From a phage, in the NCBI GenBank assembly GCA_033759635.1, contig GCA_033759635.1_4528.1: DNA of 64,000 bases; one strand, 5' to 3'. Numbering within the stretch: the first letter of the stretch is position 1; each line of letters starts with the position of its first letter. A program made the position numbers and the translations under genes. Below the pieces are notes generated by a model. It had not been told where the DNA came from. It saw nothing but the letters and a program-made list of their open reading frames with translations, and did no database searches. Shown here in pieces: positions 4,467 to 35,343 of the stretch.

Positions 4467-4646
4467 ATGACACGTAAAGAAAAGATTTCTAAGTTGATGT
4501 TTTTGATTGAAGAGTACGCTAATGCGGTATCTGATTGGGAAAATGCTCATGGTTGCGAAGATGGAGACATCGACATTAACAGAGCTATGAAAAAGATGGC
4601 CGACGCCCACACTGAATTGCAAATGTATGTTAACGAGATTATGTGA
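4467..4646 (+). CDS. hypothetical protein (59 aa)
   Basis: Start refined to ATG 4467 directly after SD GAGGAGAA of promoter cassette. Confidence 0.5.
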   Translation: MTRKEKISKLMFLIEEYANAVSDWENAHGCEDGDIDINRAMKKMADAHTELQMYVNEIM

Positions 4647-22132: not shown

Positions 22133-22313
22133 ACGTCTGAAGCTGAACGCAGGGTTCTCCCTTAAATTGGGAGGTCCTCTTTGTGTTAAAATTTCTGAAA
22201 AGGAATATCACGACGGTTCTATTACAGAAATTTGTCCGCCTATTGTAAAGGCAGACCCAAAACAACTCGTGTGGGTCGATTCATTTCAAGTTAAGAAATG
22301 GTGGAAACGATGA
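22107..22313 (+). CDS. hypothetical protein (68 aa)
   Basis: Start refined to ATG 22107. Confidence 0.45.
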   Translation: MALVQTKFKRLKLNAGFSLKLGGPLCVKISEKEYHDGSITEICPPIVKADPKQLVWVDSFQVKKWWKR

Positions 22314-22352
22314 TAGAAATTGATTTAGGCATTTTCTGAGAGGTGCTTATGC

Positions 22353-22526
22353 ATGACGAACATCCCGACTTCTGAAAATTTCGATAAAATCCGTAAAGGC
22401 AAAGCAGAAAGAATGAGACGTTTTAAAGAGACTTATGATAAAGCTAAAGCCGAAGGAACTATTACGTACAAGCCAATTCGATTTAAAAGTTCAAATGAGC
22501 CTCTGTACGGTGTACTATGTGGATAG
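22353..22526 (+). CDS. small basic ORF (57 aa)
   Basis: Not in track; SD GAGAGGTG then ATG 22353; read codon by codon to TAG 22524-22526; followed by strong terminator. Confidence 0.45.
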   Translation: MTNIPTSENFDKIRKGKAERMRRFKETYDKAKAEGTITYKPIRFKSSNEPLYGVLCG

Positions 22527-22550
22527 GAACTCTTCGGAGTTCCTTTTTTG
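22527..22550 (+). terminator. intrinsic terminator
   Basis: GGAACTC-TTCG-GAGTTCC followed by TTTTTT. Confidence 0.75.
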
Positions 22551-22572
22551 CTTTATAAACGGATGATAGAAT
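22549..22572 (+). promoter_or_regulatory. candidate middle promoter upstream of gene 47
   Basis: MotA box TGCTTTA 22549-22555, 11-nt spacer, TAGAAT 22567-22572. Confidence 0.55.
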
Positions 22573-22595
22573 GAATTAACTAATGAGGAAATAAT

Positions 22596-23615
22596 ATGAA
22601 AATTTTGCACTTAGGCGACTTCCATATCGGAGTCAAACAAGACGACCCATGGGTTCAAGATATTCAACGTGATGGTATTCGACAAGCAATTGAATACTCT
22701 AAGAAACACGGGATTAAAACTTGGATTCAGTACGGTGATTGGTTTGATGTCCGTAAAGCAATAACACATCGTACAATGGAATTCAATCGTGAAATCGTTG
22801 ATATGATTTCTAAAGCAGGCATTCACGTTCATGTCACGATAGGAAACCATGACATGGCGTTTAAGAATACAATAACACCTAACACTGTTTCTGAATTGTT
22901 AACTCAATTTGAAAACTTTACTATTTACGAACATCCAACTACTGTAGATTTTGACGGATGTCTGATTGATATCGTTCCATGGATGTGTGAAGAAAATACA
23001 GGTGAAATCTTAGAGCACATCAAGACTTCTTCTGCTGCGTATTGTGTTGGTCACTGGGAACTGAACGGCTTTTATTTCTATAAAGGAATGAAGTCTCATG
23101 GGCTTGAACCCGATTTCTTAAAGACATATAAACAAGTCTGGTCTGGCCACTTCCACACAATCTCTGAAGCTGCTAACGTCAAATATATTGGGACACCATG
23201 GACCCTTACTGCAGGTGACGAGAACGACCCACGTGGATTCTGGGTATTTGACACTGATGTTGAACGTATGGAATTTATTCCTAATGAAACAACATGGCAT
23301 CGACGAATCACTTATCCATTTAAAGGCAAAATCAATTATTCTGATTATACTAATCTAGCCGTACGTGTTATAGTATCAGAAATTGATTCAGAGTTGACTA
23401 AGTTTGAATCTGAACTTGAAAAAGTAGTTCACTCTCTTCGTATGGTTTCTAAAGTTGATAACAGTGTTGAATCTGATGACGACCAGGAAATCGAGATTAA
23501 ATCACTTCAAGATATCATTAAAGAATATATTGACGCGATTCCAGATATCTCAGACGAAGACAGAGAAGCGCTGGTCAAATATTCCAACGAACTTTATATT
23601 GAGGCAACACAATGA
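22596..23615 (+). CDS. 47: recombination endonuclease subunit gp47 (Mre11/SbcD-like)
   Basis: 339 aa; phosphoesterase motifs (LGD.H, GNHD, GHFH); strong match to recalled T4 gp47. Confidence 0.9.
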   Translation: MKILHLGDFHIGVKQDDPWVQDIQRDGIRQAIEYSKKHGIKTWIQYGDWFDVRKAITHRTMEFNREIVDMISKAGIHVHVTIGNHDMAFKNTITPNTVSELLTQFENFTIYEHPTTVDFDGCLIDIVPWMCEENTGEILEHIKTSSAAYCVGHWELNGFYFYKGMKSHGLEPDFLKTYKQVWSGHFHTISEAANVKYIGTPWTLTAGDENDPRGFWVFDTDVERMEFIPNETTWHRRITYPFKGKINYSDYTNLAVRVIVSEIDSELTKFESELEKVVHSLRMVSKVDNSVESDDDQEIEIKSLQDIIKEYIDAIPDISDEDREALVKYSNELYIEATQ

Positions 23616-23869: not shown

Positions 23870-24095
23870 TTATGAAATCCATCGTCATGAATTTAGTATT
23901 GGTGACGGTTATATTGGTATCGTTGAATGGACTGAGAATTACGAGGAGACAACTCCTCGTTTCTTTGGAACAATGTATGTTACCTGTGAGTACGCACCGG
24001 GTGTTGTTATGTATGCAGAACTAGATGAATATTTTGCTGATAGAGATGACATGTTAAAATATGTAGAGGACTTCATTCGAAGAGAATACATATGA
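23856..24095 (+). CDS. hypothetical protein (79 aa)
   Basis: Start refined to ATG 23856. Confidence 0.5.
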   Translation: MTKTDYEIHRHEFSIGDGYIGIVEWTENYEETTPRFFGTMYVTCEYAPGVVMYAELDEYFADRDDMLKYVEDFIRREYI

Positions 24096-25780
24096 AATCA
24101 TTTAAATTAAATCGTGTTCGTTATCAAAACATCATGTCGGTAGGTGGGAATCCTATTGATATCCAATTAGATAAAGTCCAAAAGACATTAATCACCGGTA
24201 AAAATGGCGGTGGTAAATCTACGATGTTAGAAGCCATCACTTTCGGACTTTTCGGTAAACCATTTCGTGATGTTAAGAAAGGACAAATCATTAATAGCAC
24301 GAACAAGAAAGAGCTCTTAGTTGAGCTTTGGATGGAATTCGATGATAAAAAATACTTCATTAAACGTGGCCAAAAGCCCAATATTTTCGAAATCTCCGTT
24401 GACGGTGTTCGTCTTGATGAATCTGCCAGCAGTCGTGACTTCCAAGAAGAATTTGAACGTAGCATCGGAATGTCATACGCGTCTTTTAAACAGATCGTTG
24501 TGCTTGGGACGGCAGGGTATACCCCTTTCATGGCTCTTAGCACCCCTGCTCGCAGAAAACTTGTCGAAGACCTTTTAGAAGTTGGCACACTCGCTGAAAT
24601 GGATAAAATCAATAAGTCTCAAGTTCGAGAACTTAATTCCCAGGGACAAGTTCTCGATGCCAAGAAAGATGGTGTTATCCAACAAATTAAGATTTATAAT
24701 GAGAATATCGAACGTCAAAAGAAATTATCTGGTGATAATGTAGCGCGTCTACAGAATATGTATGACGACCTAGCCAAAGAAGCTCGTTCATTAAAATCAG
24801 AAATTGAAGAAGCTAACGAGCGTCTACTTAATATCGTTCTTGACGAAGACCCTACTGAGGCATTCAACAAGATAGGACAAGAAGCATTCTTGATTAAATC
24901 TAAAATTGACTCATATAACAAAGTTATTAAGATGTATCATGATGGCGGTACATGTCCTACTTGTGCATCACAGTTGCACCAGGGTGATCCTATTGTCTCT
25001 AAGATTACCGATAAGCTTCATGAATGTAATCACTCATTCGAGCAACTTACCTGTCACAGAGATAATCTGAGTGTCCTAGTGGACGAATATAGAGCTAATG
25101 TTAAGACTAAGCAGGACCTTGCATCTGATATTCGTACCAAGAAACAAGCAATGATTGCCACTATTGATAAAGCTAAGAAAGTTAAAGCTGCAATAGAGCA
25201 AGCCTCGGCAGAATTTATCGACCATGCCGATGAGATAGCTTTGCTTCAAAAAGAACTTGATAAAATCATTAAAACAAAATCAGATATCGTTCTTGAAAAA
25301 TACCATCGTGGTATTATCACAGATATGTTAAAAGATTCTGGTATTAAAGGTGCTATCATTAAAAAATATGTGCCTCTGTTCAACAAGCAGATTAACCATT
25401 ATCTTAAAATCATGGAAGCTGATTACGTGTTTTCTATTGATGAAGAATTCAATGAATCTATAAAATCACGTGGCCGTGAAGAGTTCAGTTATGCTTCATT
25501 TAGTCAAGGTGAAAAGGCACGTATCGATATCGCATTGTTGTTTACATGGCGAGATATTGCTGAAAAAGTCTCTGGTGTTAGAATCAATACATTAATTATG
25601 GACGAAGTCATGGATTCCGCGACTGATTCTGAAGGTATTAAAGCTATTTCAACAATTCTTAACTCTCTAACCGATGCAAACGTGTTTATAATTAGTCACA
25701 GAGACCATGACCCACAAGCTTATGGACAACATCTTCAAATGAGCAAAGTTGGACGATTTACTGTGATGACTGTTTCATAA
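24092..25780 (+). CDS. 46: recombination endonuclease subunit gp46 (Rad50/SbcC-like ATPase)
   Basis: 562 aa; Walker A GKNGGGKST, central coiled coil with CPTC zinc hook, C-terminal LIMDEV Walker B. Confidence 0.9.
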   Translation: MKSFKLNRVRYQNIMSVGGNPIDIQLDKVQKTLITGKNGGGKSTMLEAITFGLFGKPFRDVKKGQIINSTNKKELLVELWMEFDDKKYFIKRGQKPNIFEISVDGVRLDESASSRDFQEEFERSIGMSYASFKQIVVLGTAGYTPFMALSTPARRKLVEDLLEVGTLAEMDKINKSQVRELNSQGQVLDAKKDGVIQQIKIYNENIERQKKLSGDNVARLQNMYDDLAKEARSLKSEIEEANERLLNIVLDEDPTEAFNKIGQEAFLIKSKIDSYNKVIKMYHDGGTCPTCASQLHQGDPIVSKITDKLHECNHSFEQLTCHRDNLSVLVDEYRANVKTKQDLASDIRTKKQAMIATIDKAKKVKAAIEQASAEFIDHADEIALLQKELDKIIKTKSDIVLEKYHRGIITDMLKDSGIKGAIIKKYVPLFNKQINHYLKIMEADYVFSIDEEFNESIKSRGREEFSYASFSQGEKARIDIALLFTWRDIAEKVSGVRINTLIMDEVMDSATDSEGIKAISTILNSLTDANVFIISHRDHDPQAYGQHLQMSKVGRFTVMTVS

Positions 25781-25782
25781 AC

Positions 25783-25834
25783 GCTTTAACACGATGTGGT
25801 TATAATGACCACATCAAATTAAATGGAGAACAAC
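25783..25834 (+). promoter_or_regulatory. candidate middle promoter with IR around -10
   Basis: cGCTTTA then TATAAT 25801-25806; IR gatgtggt (25793-25800) / accacatc (25808-25815). Confidence 0.4.
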
Positions 25835-26023
25835 ATGGAGTATTCAACCGGACAACATCTTCTCGTTGTCCCTGAAATTAAAAAATATGTTTTGACCAAT
25901 ACGTTTTCAGGTGAAGAACATATTGTTACTGAACAAATGCTCAAATCTGCTTTTAAAGATGAGTATAATAAAATAATGTCTAATCGCAATTCCGCATGGA
26001 CAGTTACTGACTTCTACGAATAA
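25835..26023 (+). CDS. hypothetical protein (62 aa)
   Basis: Start refined to ATG 25835 after SD GGAGAA. Confidence 0.5.
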   Translation: MEYSTGQHLLVVPEIKKYVLTNTFSGEEHIVTEQMLKSAFKDEYNKIMSNRNSAWTVTDFYE

Positions 26024-26035
26024 GAGAGAAATAAT

Positions 26036-26452
26036 ATGTTTACTACTGCTAAAGGTTTCACTGCTGCTGATCTGAAAGTTACTTCTATCCGTACTGACGC
26101 TAACCCGCATAACCATAATCGTGTTCGTAAAGCATGGGTCCTGCATTGTGATGACGCAAGTGCTAAAAAGCTTCAATCTTTGCCACAAGAAACTCGTTTT
26201 ATGATTTATGGTTTTATTGATAACGATGTATCTGATATGTGGATTCATCTGATGCGTAAGCACTATAAAGATTCTATTGAAGCCGGCGGGAAAATCGTTC
26301 TTGATAAAGACGGTTCTGAGCGTCTAGAAGATTTCTATTGTGTTGATGCCGACGAACAACTAATCGCAGCCGGCGAAATTGTTGCTTCTAAAATTCCAGA
26401 ATATATTGAATCACTGCCTGAAGCTATTAAAAAGCAGATGGTTGCTGCTTGA
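26036..26452 (+). CDS. hypothetical protein (138 aa; positional candidate for RpbA)
   Basis: ORF track; located between gene 46 and gene 45 as T4 rpbA; sequence identity not verified. Confidence 0.5.
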   Translation: MFTTAKGFTAADLKVTSIRTDANPHNHNRVRKAWVLHCDDASAKKLQSLPQETRFMIYGFIDNDVSDMWIHLMRKHYKDSIEAGGKIVLDKDGSERLEDFYCVDADEQLIAAGEIVASKIPEYIESLPEAIKKQMVAA

Positions 26453-26457
26453 TAATT

Positions 26458-27347
26458 ATGAATTTAATATATCTTATAACCTTTTATAATCGTGAGATTA
26501 AAAATGAATACCCTTGTTATTATATAGGTTCTAAAGTTTCGTGTCATTTTAATGGAAAGGATATTATTGAAGATTCTACCGGTAAAATATATACCGGTAG
26601 TGTTAATTCCTCGTATTCTCCTTTATATAACAGATTAATAGACCAAGGCGAATATTCTGTAAAATTTTAGGCGAAACCACATTAGACCCTAGAAGAATAG
26701 AAAGACTATTCCAACTCAATGTTAAAGCCGTTTCAAATGAAAAATATTTTAATAAGGCTTATGCTAACGAGAAGTCTAGAATATCAGCTAAAGGATATGC
26801 ACCGTATAAAAATTTAAAAACAGGCAAAATAGTAAAACTTTCTAAAAACGAAATAAACGAAGATTACGTCGGTGTTAGAAAAAATTGCAAATTGTCGGAG
26901 AATCATTTAAACGCAATTAGAGAATTTCAAAAAACATATTGGACCAAAGAACGAAGAGAGAAAGTTTCTATTCGTTCTAAAAAAATGTTTAGCGATAGAG
27001 ATTTTGCTTTAAAATTTAAAGATATAATGAATTCTCCTAATGTTAAAGATAAAATAAAAATATCTAAAACATTGTATTGGTCTAAACCTGAAAATAGAGC
27101 AAAGGCCTCTATCGCAGCTTCGAAAAGAAATGCAACCAAAGAATTTAAGGATAAATTCAGAAAATCTAAAGCTAGAGGTACATGGATATTTCATGAACAA
27201 AAATTAAAGGAATTGTGGATTGCTTTAGGAAAACCAAGTTATATTACATTTAGAAAACATGCAATTCAGCATGGTTTTAATGATGAATCATACCAAGGTG
27301 CTATCCGGTCTTGGACAAATTATTATGCTAATAGGAAACCTAAATGA
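26458..27347 (+). pseudogene. GIY-YIG homing endonuclease-like gene (seg-like), reading frame disrupted
   Basis: N-terminal fragment (26458..26670) has IYLITF..YYIGS..YTGS motifs; a different frame is open from 26631 to 27347 and encodes a basic Lys-rich C-terminal region; the frames overlap without a single continuous ORF. Confidence 0.45.
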
Positions 27348-28030
27348 AACTTAGTCGTGAAACCGTAAATATTCTGAAAAACTTCGCTTCTATTAACTCT
27401 GGCATTCTGCTGAGTCAAGGTAAATTTATTATGACTCGTGCAGTTAATGGCACCACTTATGCGGAAGCAAATATCTCTGATGAAATTGATTTTGACGTAG
27501 CACTTTATGATTTGAATAGCTTCTTAAGCATTTTGAGTCTAGTGTCTGACGATGCTGAAATTTCAATGCACACTGATGGTAATATTAAAATTGCAGATAC
27601 ACGTTCCACAGTTTATTGGCCTGCCGCTGACAAGAGCACCATTGTTTTTCCTAATAAGCCAATTCAATTCCCAGTGGCTTCTGTGATTACTGAAATTAAA
27701 GCCGAAGACCTTCAACAATTGCTTCGAGTTTCACGTGGTCTCCAAATTGATACAATTGCTATTACAAATAAAGATGGTAAAATTGTTATCAATGGTTACA
27801 ATAAAGTTGAAGATTCTGGCTTGACTCGTCCTAAGTATTCTTTGACTCTTACCGATTATGATGGTTCTAACAACTTTAACTTCGTAATCAATATGGCTAA
27901 TATGAAAATCCAGCCAGGTAACTATAAAGTAATGCTGTGGGGAGCTGGTGATAAAGTTGCAGCCAAGTTTGAAAGCTCTCAAGTAAGTTATGTTATTGCA
28001 ATGGAAGCCGATTCTACTCACGACTTCTAA
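27344..28030 (+). CDS. 45: sliding clamp gp45
   Basis: 228 aa; near-identical blocks to recalled T4 gp45 (FIMTRAVNGTTYAEANISD..., LRVSRGLQIDTIAIT). Confidence 0.9.
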   Translation: MKLSRETVNILKNFASINSGILLSQGKFIMTRAVNGTTYAEANISDEIDFDVALYDLNSFLSILSLVSDDAEISMHTDGNIKIADTRSTVYWPAADKSTIVFPNKPIQFPVASVITEIKAEDLQQLLRVSRGLQIDTIAITNKDGKIVINGYNKVEDSGLTRPKYSLTLTDYDGSNNFNFVINMANMKIQPGNYKVMLWGAGDKVAAKFESSQVSYVIAMEADSTHDF

Positions 28031-33654: not shown

Positions 33655-35343
33655 ATGAAAAAAGCTGTTATTCTTGGTGCTGGATTAGCAACTCGTTTAT
33701 ATCCAATTACTCACCATATTCCTAAGGTGCTTGTTAACTATAAACAAGACACTATTCTGAGCAATTTGTATACAATTTATTCTGACCTTGGCGCAGATGA
33801 AATTATTGTAGTAGTTCATTCAAAATTTGCTGAAACTGTTCGAGCTTATTGTGAGCAAGAAGGGTTCAATGTGACTATTCGTACAGTTGATGAAGCGTAT
33901 GGTTCTGCTTATGCTCTTGCTAAATTACACAAAGATTTAGACGGCCATAACGTAATTGTTAACTGGTGTGATATTATTCCTGATTTTGGTTCATGGTCTT
34001 GGAATGTTAACGCAATCTATGTTAAGGGTGATGAATGTCGATATAATTTCGATGGTGAAAATATCACTAACGTAGGTTCAACTGGTGGTAATGTTGTAGG
34101 AATTTATCAGTTCAAAGACTGGGAATTCTATATGGGTTCTACTGATGAGGAAATTCATGAATACTGCAAAGGACGTGATTTCGTAGAATTCCTTTACAGC
34201 GGCGCATTCAATAAATCAGAGCTTATGAATATCATCGACCTTGGTGATATGCCTAAACTTGAAAAAGCTCATGAAGTTCGTGAACTTAATCGTAGTTTTA
34301 ATGCAGTTGAAATTGGTGAAGAAACGGTAACAAAGATTGCTTTAACAGAACAGGGCGTTGCACTTCAAAAAGATGAAGTCAATTGGTATAAGAAAGTTAA
34401 ATCAGATTCAGTTCCACGGATTGTAAGTTATCATCCTGGCGGCCACTTTATTATGGAACGCATTAAAGGTAAGCCGGCATTTGAATATATTAAATCCAAA
34501 TCAAGTCTTGCTCGTCCACAAATTGTTGATGCAATTTTAGATGCACTGAAATTCAGCACAGACATGTATTTTGTAAGTCCTGAAACTGTTCGTCGTGATT
34601 TCACTAAAGAATTCTATACGAAAGTTATTGATCGTTGTGAAAGTATTCAACCATTGATTGATTCATTTGGTAAAATCACACATGTGAACTACACTAAGAT
34701 TGGACGTCTGAAGCCAATGCTGAAGCAAGCTTTAGAACATCTTATTCGTTATCATACCCGTTCTCAGGGACAGTACTCTGTTATTCATGGTGACCCGAAC
34801 TTCAGTAATACTATGATTACTGATAACGGCGAAGTCAAGTTTATCGACCCTCGTGGATATTTTGGCGAAACCAAGATTTACGGGCCAAAATTGTACGATG
34901 AAGCTAAAGTGCTTTATGCTGTTTCAGGTTATGATGAATTCAATGCTAATCCGACCTGGGGACAGTTTACTATTGATGAAACAACTTGTAATGTGACTAT
35001 TAACATCAATCCATTAATTTACAAATATGGAAAGATGAGTTCGTTTAACGAGTATCATCATTTGGCGGTGGCAATTATCTGGATTGCATTAGGTGGTTAT
35101 TTCAAGAATAATCCACTTAAAGCGGTAGCCGCATATTATAAAGGTATGGAACTTCTGACTAAGCAATTACGCAACATGGGCCGTGTACTTCAAGACGGCT
35201 CTATTAGTTATGACGTAGCAGGACCTGTAACGGCTACTCTGATTACAAAAAATCCTGGTAAATGGGTACTAACTGATAAAGAAACTGGTGTTTCCTATCG
35301 TCCAATCGGTGGCGATATCACTCATCAATGGGAACGAATCTAA
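33655..35343 (+). CDS. bifunctional sugar-1-phosphate nucleotidyltransferase / APH-fold anomeric sugar kinase
   Basis: 562 aa; N-terminal ILGAGLATRLYPIT..PKVL NTP-transferase motif; C-terminal Brenner motif VIHGDPNFSNTMI and IDPRGYFG kinase motif. Confidence 0.7.
   Translation: MKKAVILGAGLATRLYPITHHIPKVLVNYKQDTILSNLYTIYSDLGADEIIVVVHSKFAETVRAYCEQEGFNVTIRTVDEAYGSAYALAKLHKDLDGHNVIVNWCDIIPDFGSWSWNVNAIYVKGDECRYNFDGENITNVGSTGGNVVGIYQFKDWEFYMGSTDEEIHEYCKGRDFVEFLYSGAFNKSELMNIIDLGDMPKLEKAHEVRELNRSFNAVEIGEETVTKIALTEQGVALQKDEVNWYKKVKSDSVPRIVSYHPGGHFIMERIKGKPAFEYIKSKSSLARPQIVDAILDALKFSTDMYFVSPETVRRDFTKEFYTKVIDRCESIQPLIDSFGKITHVNYTKIGRLKPMLKQALEHLIRYHTRSQGQYSVIHGDPNFSNTMITDNGEVKFIDPRGYFGETKIYGPKLYDEAKVLYAVSGYDEFNANPTWGQFTIDETTCNVTININPLIYKYGKMSSFNEYHHLAVAIIWIALGGYFKNNPLKAVAAYYKGMELLTKQLRNMGRVLQDGSISYDVAGPVTATLITKNPGKWVLTDKETGVSYRPIGGDITHQWERI

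Follow-up and report, generated by a model that had tools for sequence, protein, structure and literature searches.

A probable, recently inactivated homing endonuclease pseudogene of the SegG-like GIY-YIG type at the rpbA-gene 45 junction of an RB69-like Mosigvirus

The rpbA-gene 45 junction and its split reading frame

The window (the whole 64,000-nucleotide stretch of DNA analyzed here, from contig GCA_033759635.1_4528.1 of GenBank assembly GCA_033759635.1) is part of a T4-like genome and, by megablast against 50,697 phage records, belongs to an RB69-like Mosigvirus. Its genes near the locus follow the order gene 46, 45.2, rpbA, gene 45, and gene 44, with genes 62 and regA beyond (Table 1). 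The original prediction placed a frame-disrupted endonuclease gene between genes 46 and 45; the right flank is gene 45, encoding the sliding clamp, but the left neighbor is rpbA, encoding the RNA polymerase-binding protein, and not gene 46. The cassette starts 5 nt past the rpbA stop codon. The last sense codon and stop codon of rpbA read GCT TGA in the window versus GCA TAA in RB69, and at the other end of the cassette the stop codon of the endonuclease and the start codon of gene 45 share bases (ATGA). No obvious Shine-Dalgarno sequence accompanies the start of the endonuclease ORF.

Two reading frames cover the region, and the coordinates originally given for them, a 70-codon ORF with GIY-YIG motifs and a second frame at 26631-27347, proved right throughout. 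The 70-residue product (MNLIYLITF...YYIGS...IYTGS...SVKF) holds Y5, R12, Y22-I-G-S-K26, Y45, G47, and S51-S52; it is without the invariant residues E82 and N99, both of which are encoded only past the frameshift. The second frame follows a stop codon at 26628-26630 and stays open from 26631 to a TGA at 27345-27347, giving 238 Lys-rich codons. Its earliest start codon is a TTG at 26892, with no evident Shine-Dalgarno sequence.

The frames part at a run of four A's where all ten insert-carrying relatives have five, in agreement with the proposed frame disruption; a one-base deletion at this run shifts the frame by −1. With one A restored, the gene becomes an 891-nt ORF of 296 codons that is 98-99% identical to the intact genes of five GenBank phages and three metagenome/SRA contigs. 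Because a single added A restores an ORF matching intact relatives, the frame pattern is not a product of chance. The lesion cuts the GIY-YIG motifs off from Glu82, Asn99, and the whole putative DNA-binding half of the protein. The missing A aside, the window copy differs from that of AV109, one of the intact relatives, by only a few scattered substitutions (pS 0.006, pN 0.003).

Table 1. Positions of genes, fragments, and sequence motifs at and around the rpbA-gene 45 junction of the window
Feature	Position	Strand	Remarks
Gene 46	24092-25780
45.2	25823-26023
rpbA (RNA polymerase-binding protein)	26036-26452	+	Left flank of the insertion; PF10789 Phage_RpbA
Low-diversity block	26440-27540		Insert plus short, putatively co-converted flanks; pi ~0.003 among 11 carriers
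Endonuclease region	26458-27347		Between rpbA and gene 45
N-terminal fragment	26458-26670	+	70 codons plus TAG (26668-26670); PHROG 7504, 4e-9
Lesion	26661-26664	+	A4 run versus A5 in 10/10 insert-carrying relatives (alignment)
Remaining endonuclease gene, second frame	26664-27347	+	End of catalytic domain (E82, N99), small beta region, helical Lys-rich, putative DNA-binding half
Middle-promoter-like motif 1	27005-27028	+	TGCTTTA-11-TATAAT, inside endonuclease gene; kept in TH15 ortholog
Middle-promoter-like motif 2	27221-27245	+	TGCTTTA-12-TATATT, ~100 nt upstream of gene 45
Gene 45 Shine-Dalgarno sequence	27333-27338	+	AGGAAA, in last endonuclease codons; same AGGAAA before gene 45 in RB69 and T4
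Gene 45 (sliding clamp)	27344-28030
Recoded gene 45 codons 3-9	27350-27370	+	CTT AGT CGT GAA ACC GTA AAT, versus CTG TCT AAA GAT ACT ATC GCT in RB69
Gene 44	28106-29068
Genes 62 and regA			Downstream, beyond gene 44

Assignment to the GIY-YIG endonucleases

Sequence comparison and a structural model lead us to predict that the intact protein is a free-standing, Seg-type (SegG-like) GIY-YIG homing endonuclease with its own DNA-binding half, as had been proposed for this locus. It matches PHROG 7504 (“homing endonuclease”) at 2e-16. In a tblastn search of phage records, T4 SegG was, among the matches listed, the closest with a named seg annotation (36% identity, residues 1-136, E = 6e-8); the alignment with T4 Seg proteins that the original prediction suggested gave, by pairwise BLASTP against SegG, 38% identity over 138 amino acids (E = 4e-16), and all motifs were spanned. 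Both matches span the entire N-terminal catalytic domain. T4 SegG (formerly 32.1) has been reviewed as a GIY-YIG homing endonuclease (PMC2988022).

Neither the intact protein nor either of the fragments had a GIY-YIG match in Pfam (PF01541 included) or NCBIfam at E ≤ 1. A lack of GIY-YIG similarity in profile searches had been put forward as grounds for dropping the assignment, yet this outcome is uninformative for Pfam and NCBIfam: T4 SegG, itself annotated as a GIY-YIG protein, is likewise unmatched by both. We therefore attribute the absent match to low profile sensitivity for this clade, and reject it as evidence against membership. A single-protein phmmer search yielded only one PDB match, to a Na/Ca exchanger, which is spurious.

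Conservation was assessed in a family set of 52 relatives obtained by profile search. Y22-I23-G24-S25, Y45, E82, and N99 are invariant (52 of 52), and Y5 (50 of 52), P19, K26 (51 of 52), G47, S51, S52, F98, and A103 are nearly so. In the resulting Y..YIG..E..N pattern, the GIY motif corresponds to LIY5 and the YIG motif to Y22-I23-G24, both within the 70-residue fragment encoded in the window. The Tyr-to-Tyr spacing of the two motifs is 17 residues, the same as in T4 SegG and longer than the 11 residues of I-TevI; the spacings Y22-E82 and E82-N99 are 60 and 17 residues, compared with 58 and 15 in I-TevI, whose catalytic residues are Glu75 and Asn90. As for Arg27 of I-TevI, no invariant Arg follows the YIG motif among the 52 relatives; judging from their conservation, K26 and R12 (44 of 52) might act as substitutes.

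An AlphaFold2 model built on the family alignment (mean pLDDT, 87) had as its best Foldseek match the catalytic domain of I-TevI (1LN0; E = 1.3; TM = 0.58, target normalized), and the modeled protein has the GIY-YIG alpha/beta fold. In the C-terminal half, NUMOD3 (PF07460) occurs in many relatives and the I-TevI DNA-binding domain (PF20987) in one; the family profile matches the structure of the I-TevI DNA-binding domain, 1I3J (8e-5). When the family was aligned with I-TevI by hhalign, only the NUMOD3 segment aligned and not the catalytic domain. The C-terminal half of the window's protein is all-helical and Lys-rich, and it falls below every Pfam threshold.

T4 SegG and the window gene share the motif pattern IVY..F, YYIGSK, Y.S, and ER.QL.V.A..N..YFN, and both are free-standing cassettes immediately upstream of an essential replication gene. 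They differ in site (between genes 59 and 32 for segG, between rpbA and gene 45 here), in presumed target (gene 32 versus the start of gene 45), and in length (210 versus 296 amino acids for the intact protein), and their C-terminal halves are unrelated. SegG is listed as active (PMC2988022), whereas activity is predicted for the rpbA-gene 45 family, whose copy in the window is frameshifted. I-TevI, the td intron endonuclease and structural prototype, is intron encoded, whereas the window gene is free-standing; its catalytic domain has no significant sequence similarity to that of the window protein, in which, besides the longer spacer, we saw no clear equivalent of Arg27 and no evident zinc finger. 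No named endonuclease at the rpbA-gene 45 site was found in the searchable literature; apparently, this is an ordinary, uncharacterized Seg-type gene.

Distribution, signs of homing, and promoter motifs

The whole 1.66-kb query is carried by ten Mosigvirus records at 98.3-98.7% identity (megablast). The insert is missing from RB69 and from ~140 other Mosigvirus records, in which rpbA and gene 45 alone match; in RB69 the two genes lie 42 bp apart. This comparison with insert-less relatives, also suggested at the outset, upholds the proposal of a mobile insertion in a block of replication genes. The gene is annotated as intact in five of the ten carriers (AV109, AV114, AV118, AV116, and FL31), and three metagenome/SRA contigs have it intact in the same gene context, with A5 and a single frame. 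GenBank mostly labels its product “hypothetical protein” or has the gene split into two.

Alignment of the ten carriers with the window showed that six of these 11 copies, the window's included, are broken, by five independent lesions in four A runs (A5, A6, A7, and A5). JM17 and FL18 have one A more in the A6 run, G2285 has one A less in the A7 run, AV115 has four A's more in that same A7 run, and AV111 has one A less in an A5 run. The gene is 41% A and contains 11 runs of five or more A's. In another phage, vB_EcoM_G2469 (MK327934.1), gene 45 is annotated as two coding sequences (1360-2101) owing to a 55-nt tandem duplication that neither RB69 nor the window has. The duplication is probably an assembly artifact; since G2285 comes from the same study, its lesion must be viewed with caution.

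AV109 also has a paralogous, 273-aa endonuclease with NUMOD3, located between nrdD and endonuclease VII (33875-34696) and 48% identical to the rpbA-gene 45 endonuclease over the first 51 residues, as well as a 267-aa ORF upstream of gene 47 (26746-27549); neither is present in the window (region 22135-22600). A further endonuclease gene occurs between gene 46 and 45.2 in G2285 and FL31. Homing endonuclease gene content differs greatly among these near-identical phages.

Full-length orthologs with ~58-62% identity occupy exactly the same rpbA-gene 45 junction in Tequatrovirus (SholemSchwarzbard, EC121, and others) and in Gaprivervirus (TH15); the T4 site is empty. The EC121 ortholog (MF001359.1, 886-1773) is annotated only from 1027, as a 248-aa product, and is either an N-terminally disrupted or a misannotated copy. 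Between the three lineages dN/dS is 0.14-0.23, a rough value because dS is saturated, and indicates long-term purifying selection on the protein.

Gene 45 starts with the identical ATGAAACTGTCTAAAGATACTA in T4 and RB69, neither of which has the endonuclease gene at this site. In all three carrier lineages, codons 3 to 9 of gene 45 are recoded, partly by synonymous changes, and the Mosigvirus variant of gene 45 is found in the ten carriers only. Because such recoding is a classic signature of an altered self-immunity target, the start of gene 45 is likely the site of recognition or cleavage. Nucleotide diversity, calculated over the 11 carriers, is 0.0027 for the insert and 0.0036 for the initial 200 nt of gene 45; rpbA, 45.2, and the remainder of gene 45 have values of 0.017-0.036, which makes the insert ~6-13 times less diverse than its flanks. 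Such a trough, reaching ~200 nt into gene 45, fits a recent spread in which one cassette entered different backgrounds along with short, co-converted flanks. If it acts as T4 SegF and SegG do, an intact enzyme present in a mixed infection would cut the insert-less allele within or close to the opening codons of gene 45, after which recombinational repair would carry the endonuclease gene, with short flanking stretches, over to the cut genome; the recoded gene 45 start would shield carriers from being cut.

The insert may also bear on the expression of gene 45. The T4-type middle-promoter pattern (TGCTTHA, 11-13 nt, TANNNT) has 19 matches in the window, versus 2.75 ± 1.66 expected from shuffles, and two of them lie upstream of gene 45 within the insert (Table 1). 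TH15 also keeps the second, which is nearer to gene 45, and SholemSchwarzbard and EC121 keep part of it. The empty rpbA-gene 45 spacer of T4 bears the same pattern. The insert displaced the spacer and, to judge from these motifs, appears to have brought replacement promoters for gene 45. The same embedded-promoter arrangement is found at segG/gene 32, where it was argued to favor retention of the cassette; the segG ORF has promoters for its downstream gene (PMC2988022), and the window gene has motifs only.

A weaker middle-promoter-like motif, TGCTTGA-12-TAATAT, extends across the rpbA stop and the endonuclease start (26446-26470). A transcript from it would begin inside the endonuclease ORF, without the start codon, and the motif may be what is left of the gene 45 promoter that the insert displaced. 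No late promoter (TATAAATA) was found near the endonuclease gene, and a scan for generic sigma-70 promoters found 6 versus 8.7 expected. Inside the endonuclease ORF, at 26576-26600, lies a perfect 9-bp hairpin (CTACCGGTA-7 nt-TACCGGTAG; −14.9 kcal/mol with flanks) that stems from repeated Thr-Gly codons; as the orthologs in Tequatrovirus and Gaprivervirus do not have it, it is probably no conserved regulatory element.

Readings of the frame disruption and their meaning

We favor the reading that this SegG-like GIY-YIG gene, having gone from A5 to A4, is a recently inactivated, non-mobile pseudogene, and consider it likely that the A4 lesion is a real mutation. Loss of the A would end translation after 70 residues, before Glu82, Asn99, and the putative DNA-binding half, and as far as its sequence tells, the window copy is most probably inactive and no longer able to home. 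The evidence bearing on real mutation versus sequence error comes from assembled sequences and is indirect. Over the ~50 kb homologous to AV109, 81 of 91 AV109 genes are full-length and single-frame in the window. The endonuclease gene is the only substantial one that is split relative to AV109, the other genes that are not full-length being absent, truncated, or highly diverged; thus, the window sequence is not generally error-prone. The only other frame split relative to AV109 is at 4537-4538, where a G run reads GGG versus GGGG in a doubtful, 37-codon hypothetical ORF. The AV phages were sequenced by Illumina MiSeq (2x250; PMC10844046), and for this reason the lesions in AV115 and AV111 are probably genuine.

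That the true sequence is A5, with an intact and functional gene from which one A was dropped in the consensus, is unlikely, although we give this reading some weight. A wrong homopolymer length is the most frequent kind of consensus error, and the lesion is just such a change, of one base; apart from it, the sequence departs from AV109 by only a few scattered substitutions. The suspicious duplication in gene 45 of G2469 suggests that errors do occur in this group. Besides the window, only one Logan contig (SRR24392125) is recorded with the 70-aa product; the two sequences match without a difference over 6.2 kb, and the contig, probably of the same source, is thus not independent support for A4. 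Against an error stand the lack of any other substantial split gene in ~50 kb of the window, the shortness of a 4- versus 5-base run for a short-read homopolymer error, and the comparable lesions that MiSeq-sequenced relatives bear in the same gene; in addition, a 42-kb, k-mer-based Logan contig would imply accurate reads.

A homing endonuclease gene that is dead in one phage and intact in relatives, and so at the degeneration stage of homing, has a parallel in I-TevIII, an intact form of which exists in a relative, RB3. The T4 I-TevIII is called “defunct” in the title of one report (PMC2790892). Unlike that gene, the window gene has lost one base from a homopolymer and is otherwise undecayed, and the damage is therefore either very recent or artifactual.

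It is quite improbable that the phage population tunes the cost of the nuclease, either through on/off slippage in A runs or through a trickle of enzyme made by −1 slippage on A4. If this were true, the nuclease being tuned would be one aimed at the start of the phage's own essential clamp gene, and the cassette would be retained for the gene 45 promoters and ribosome-binding site that it supplies. The original prediction had left open whether the gene is decaying or requires a frameshift; decay fits, but a required frameshift does not, given the single-frame relatives with A5 and the lack of both a slippery heptamer and downstream structure. Programmed or leaky −1 frameshifting on A AAA (26661-26664) would still let some full-length endonuclease be made, at a low and perhaps regulated level, and slippage of tRNA-Lys one base backward on AAAA would give the exact wild-type ...SVKILGET.... 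There is also an AAGG ~13 nt upstream, and many T4 homing endonucleases are held at low expression (PMC2988022). We nevertheless consider such frameshifting very improbable, because the two-frame layout is unique to the window: all ten relatives have A5, five of them are single-frame throughout, and the Tequatrovirus ortholog reads GTC AAA ATT in frame. Moreover, GT A AAA TTT TAG does not conform to X XXY YYZ; the P-site Lys codon alone can re-pair and the A-site TTT cannot, so the site is not a slippery heptamer. The downstream segment (26665-26760) has a minimum free energy of −12.4 kcal/mol (z = −1.1), and 28 of 200 shuffled versions fold equally well or better. The other broken relatives, finally, are broken at unrelated A runs.

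A contingency locus, in which A-run lesions reversibly switch the endonuclease on and off rather than record one-way decay, is hardly credible: the number of independently broken carriers, the two length changes within one A7 run, the absence of other damage, and the abundance of A runs would all suit it, but simple mutational decay of a gene rich in A and freed from selection (when fixed or propagated alone) should leave the same picture, and runs of 4 to 7 A's are short for efficient switching.

To return to the favored reading, a recently inactivated pseudogene, a knocked-out gene is an ordinary stage in the life of homing endonuclease elements. The DNA of the insert is probably still useful to the phage, in that it holds the two middle-promoter motifs and the ribosome-binding site of gene 45; as at segG/gene 32, the putative gene 45 promoters of the cassette would account for the retention of a dead copy in its entirety. 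The rpbA-gene 45 endonuclease adds one more free-standing Seg-type enzyme to the T-even repertoire and brings no new mechanism, and the target inferred for it, the opening codons of the sliding-clamp gene, is well defined. The “hypothetical protein” and split annotations that it has in GenBank can be corrected. Together, the intact copies, the five independently broken alleles, and the empty sites form a natural series in near-identical backgrounds, which is usable for studying the cycle of homing endonuclease invasion and decay as well as the retention of dead, promoter-bearing cassettes.
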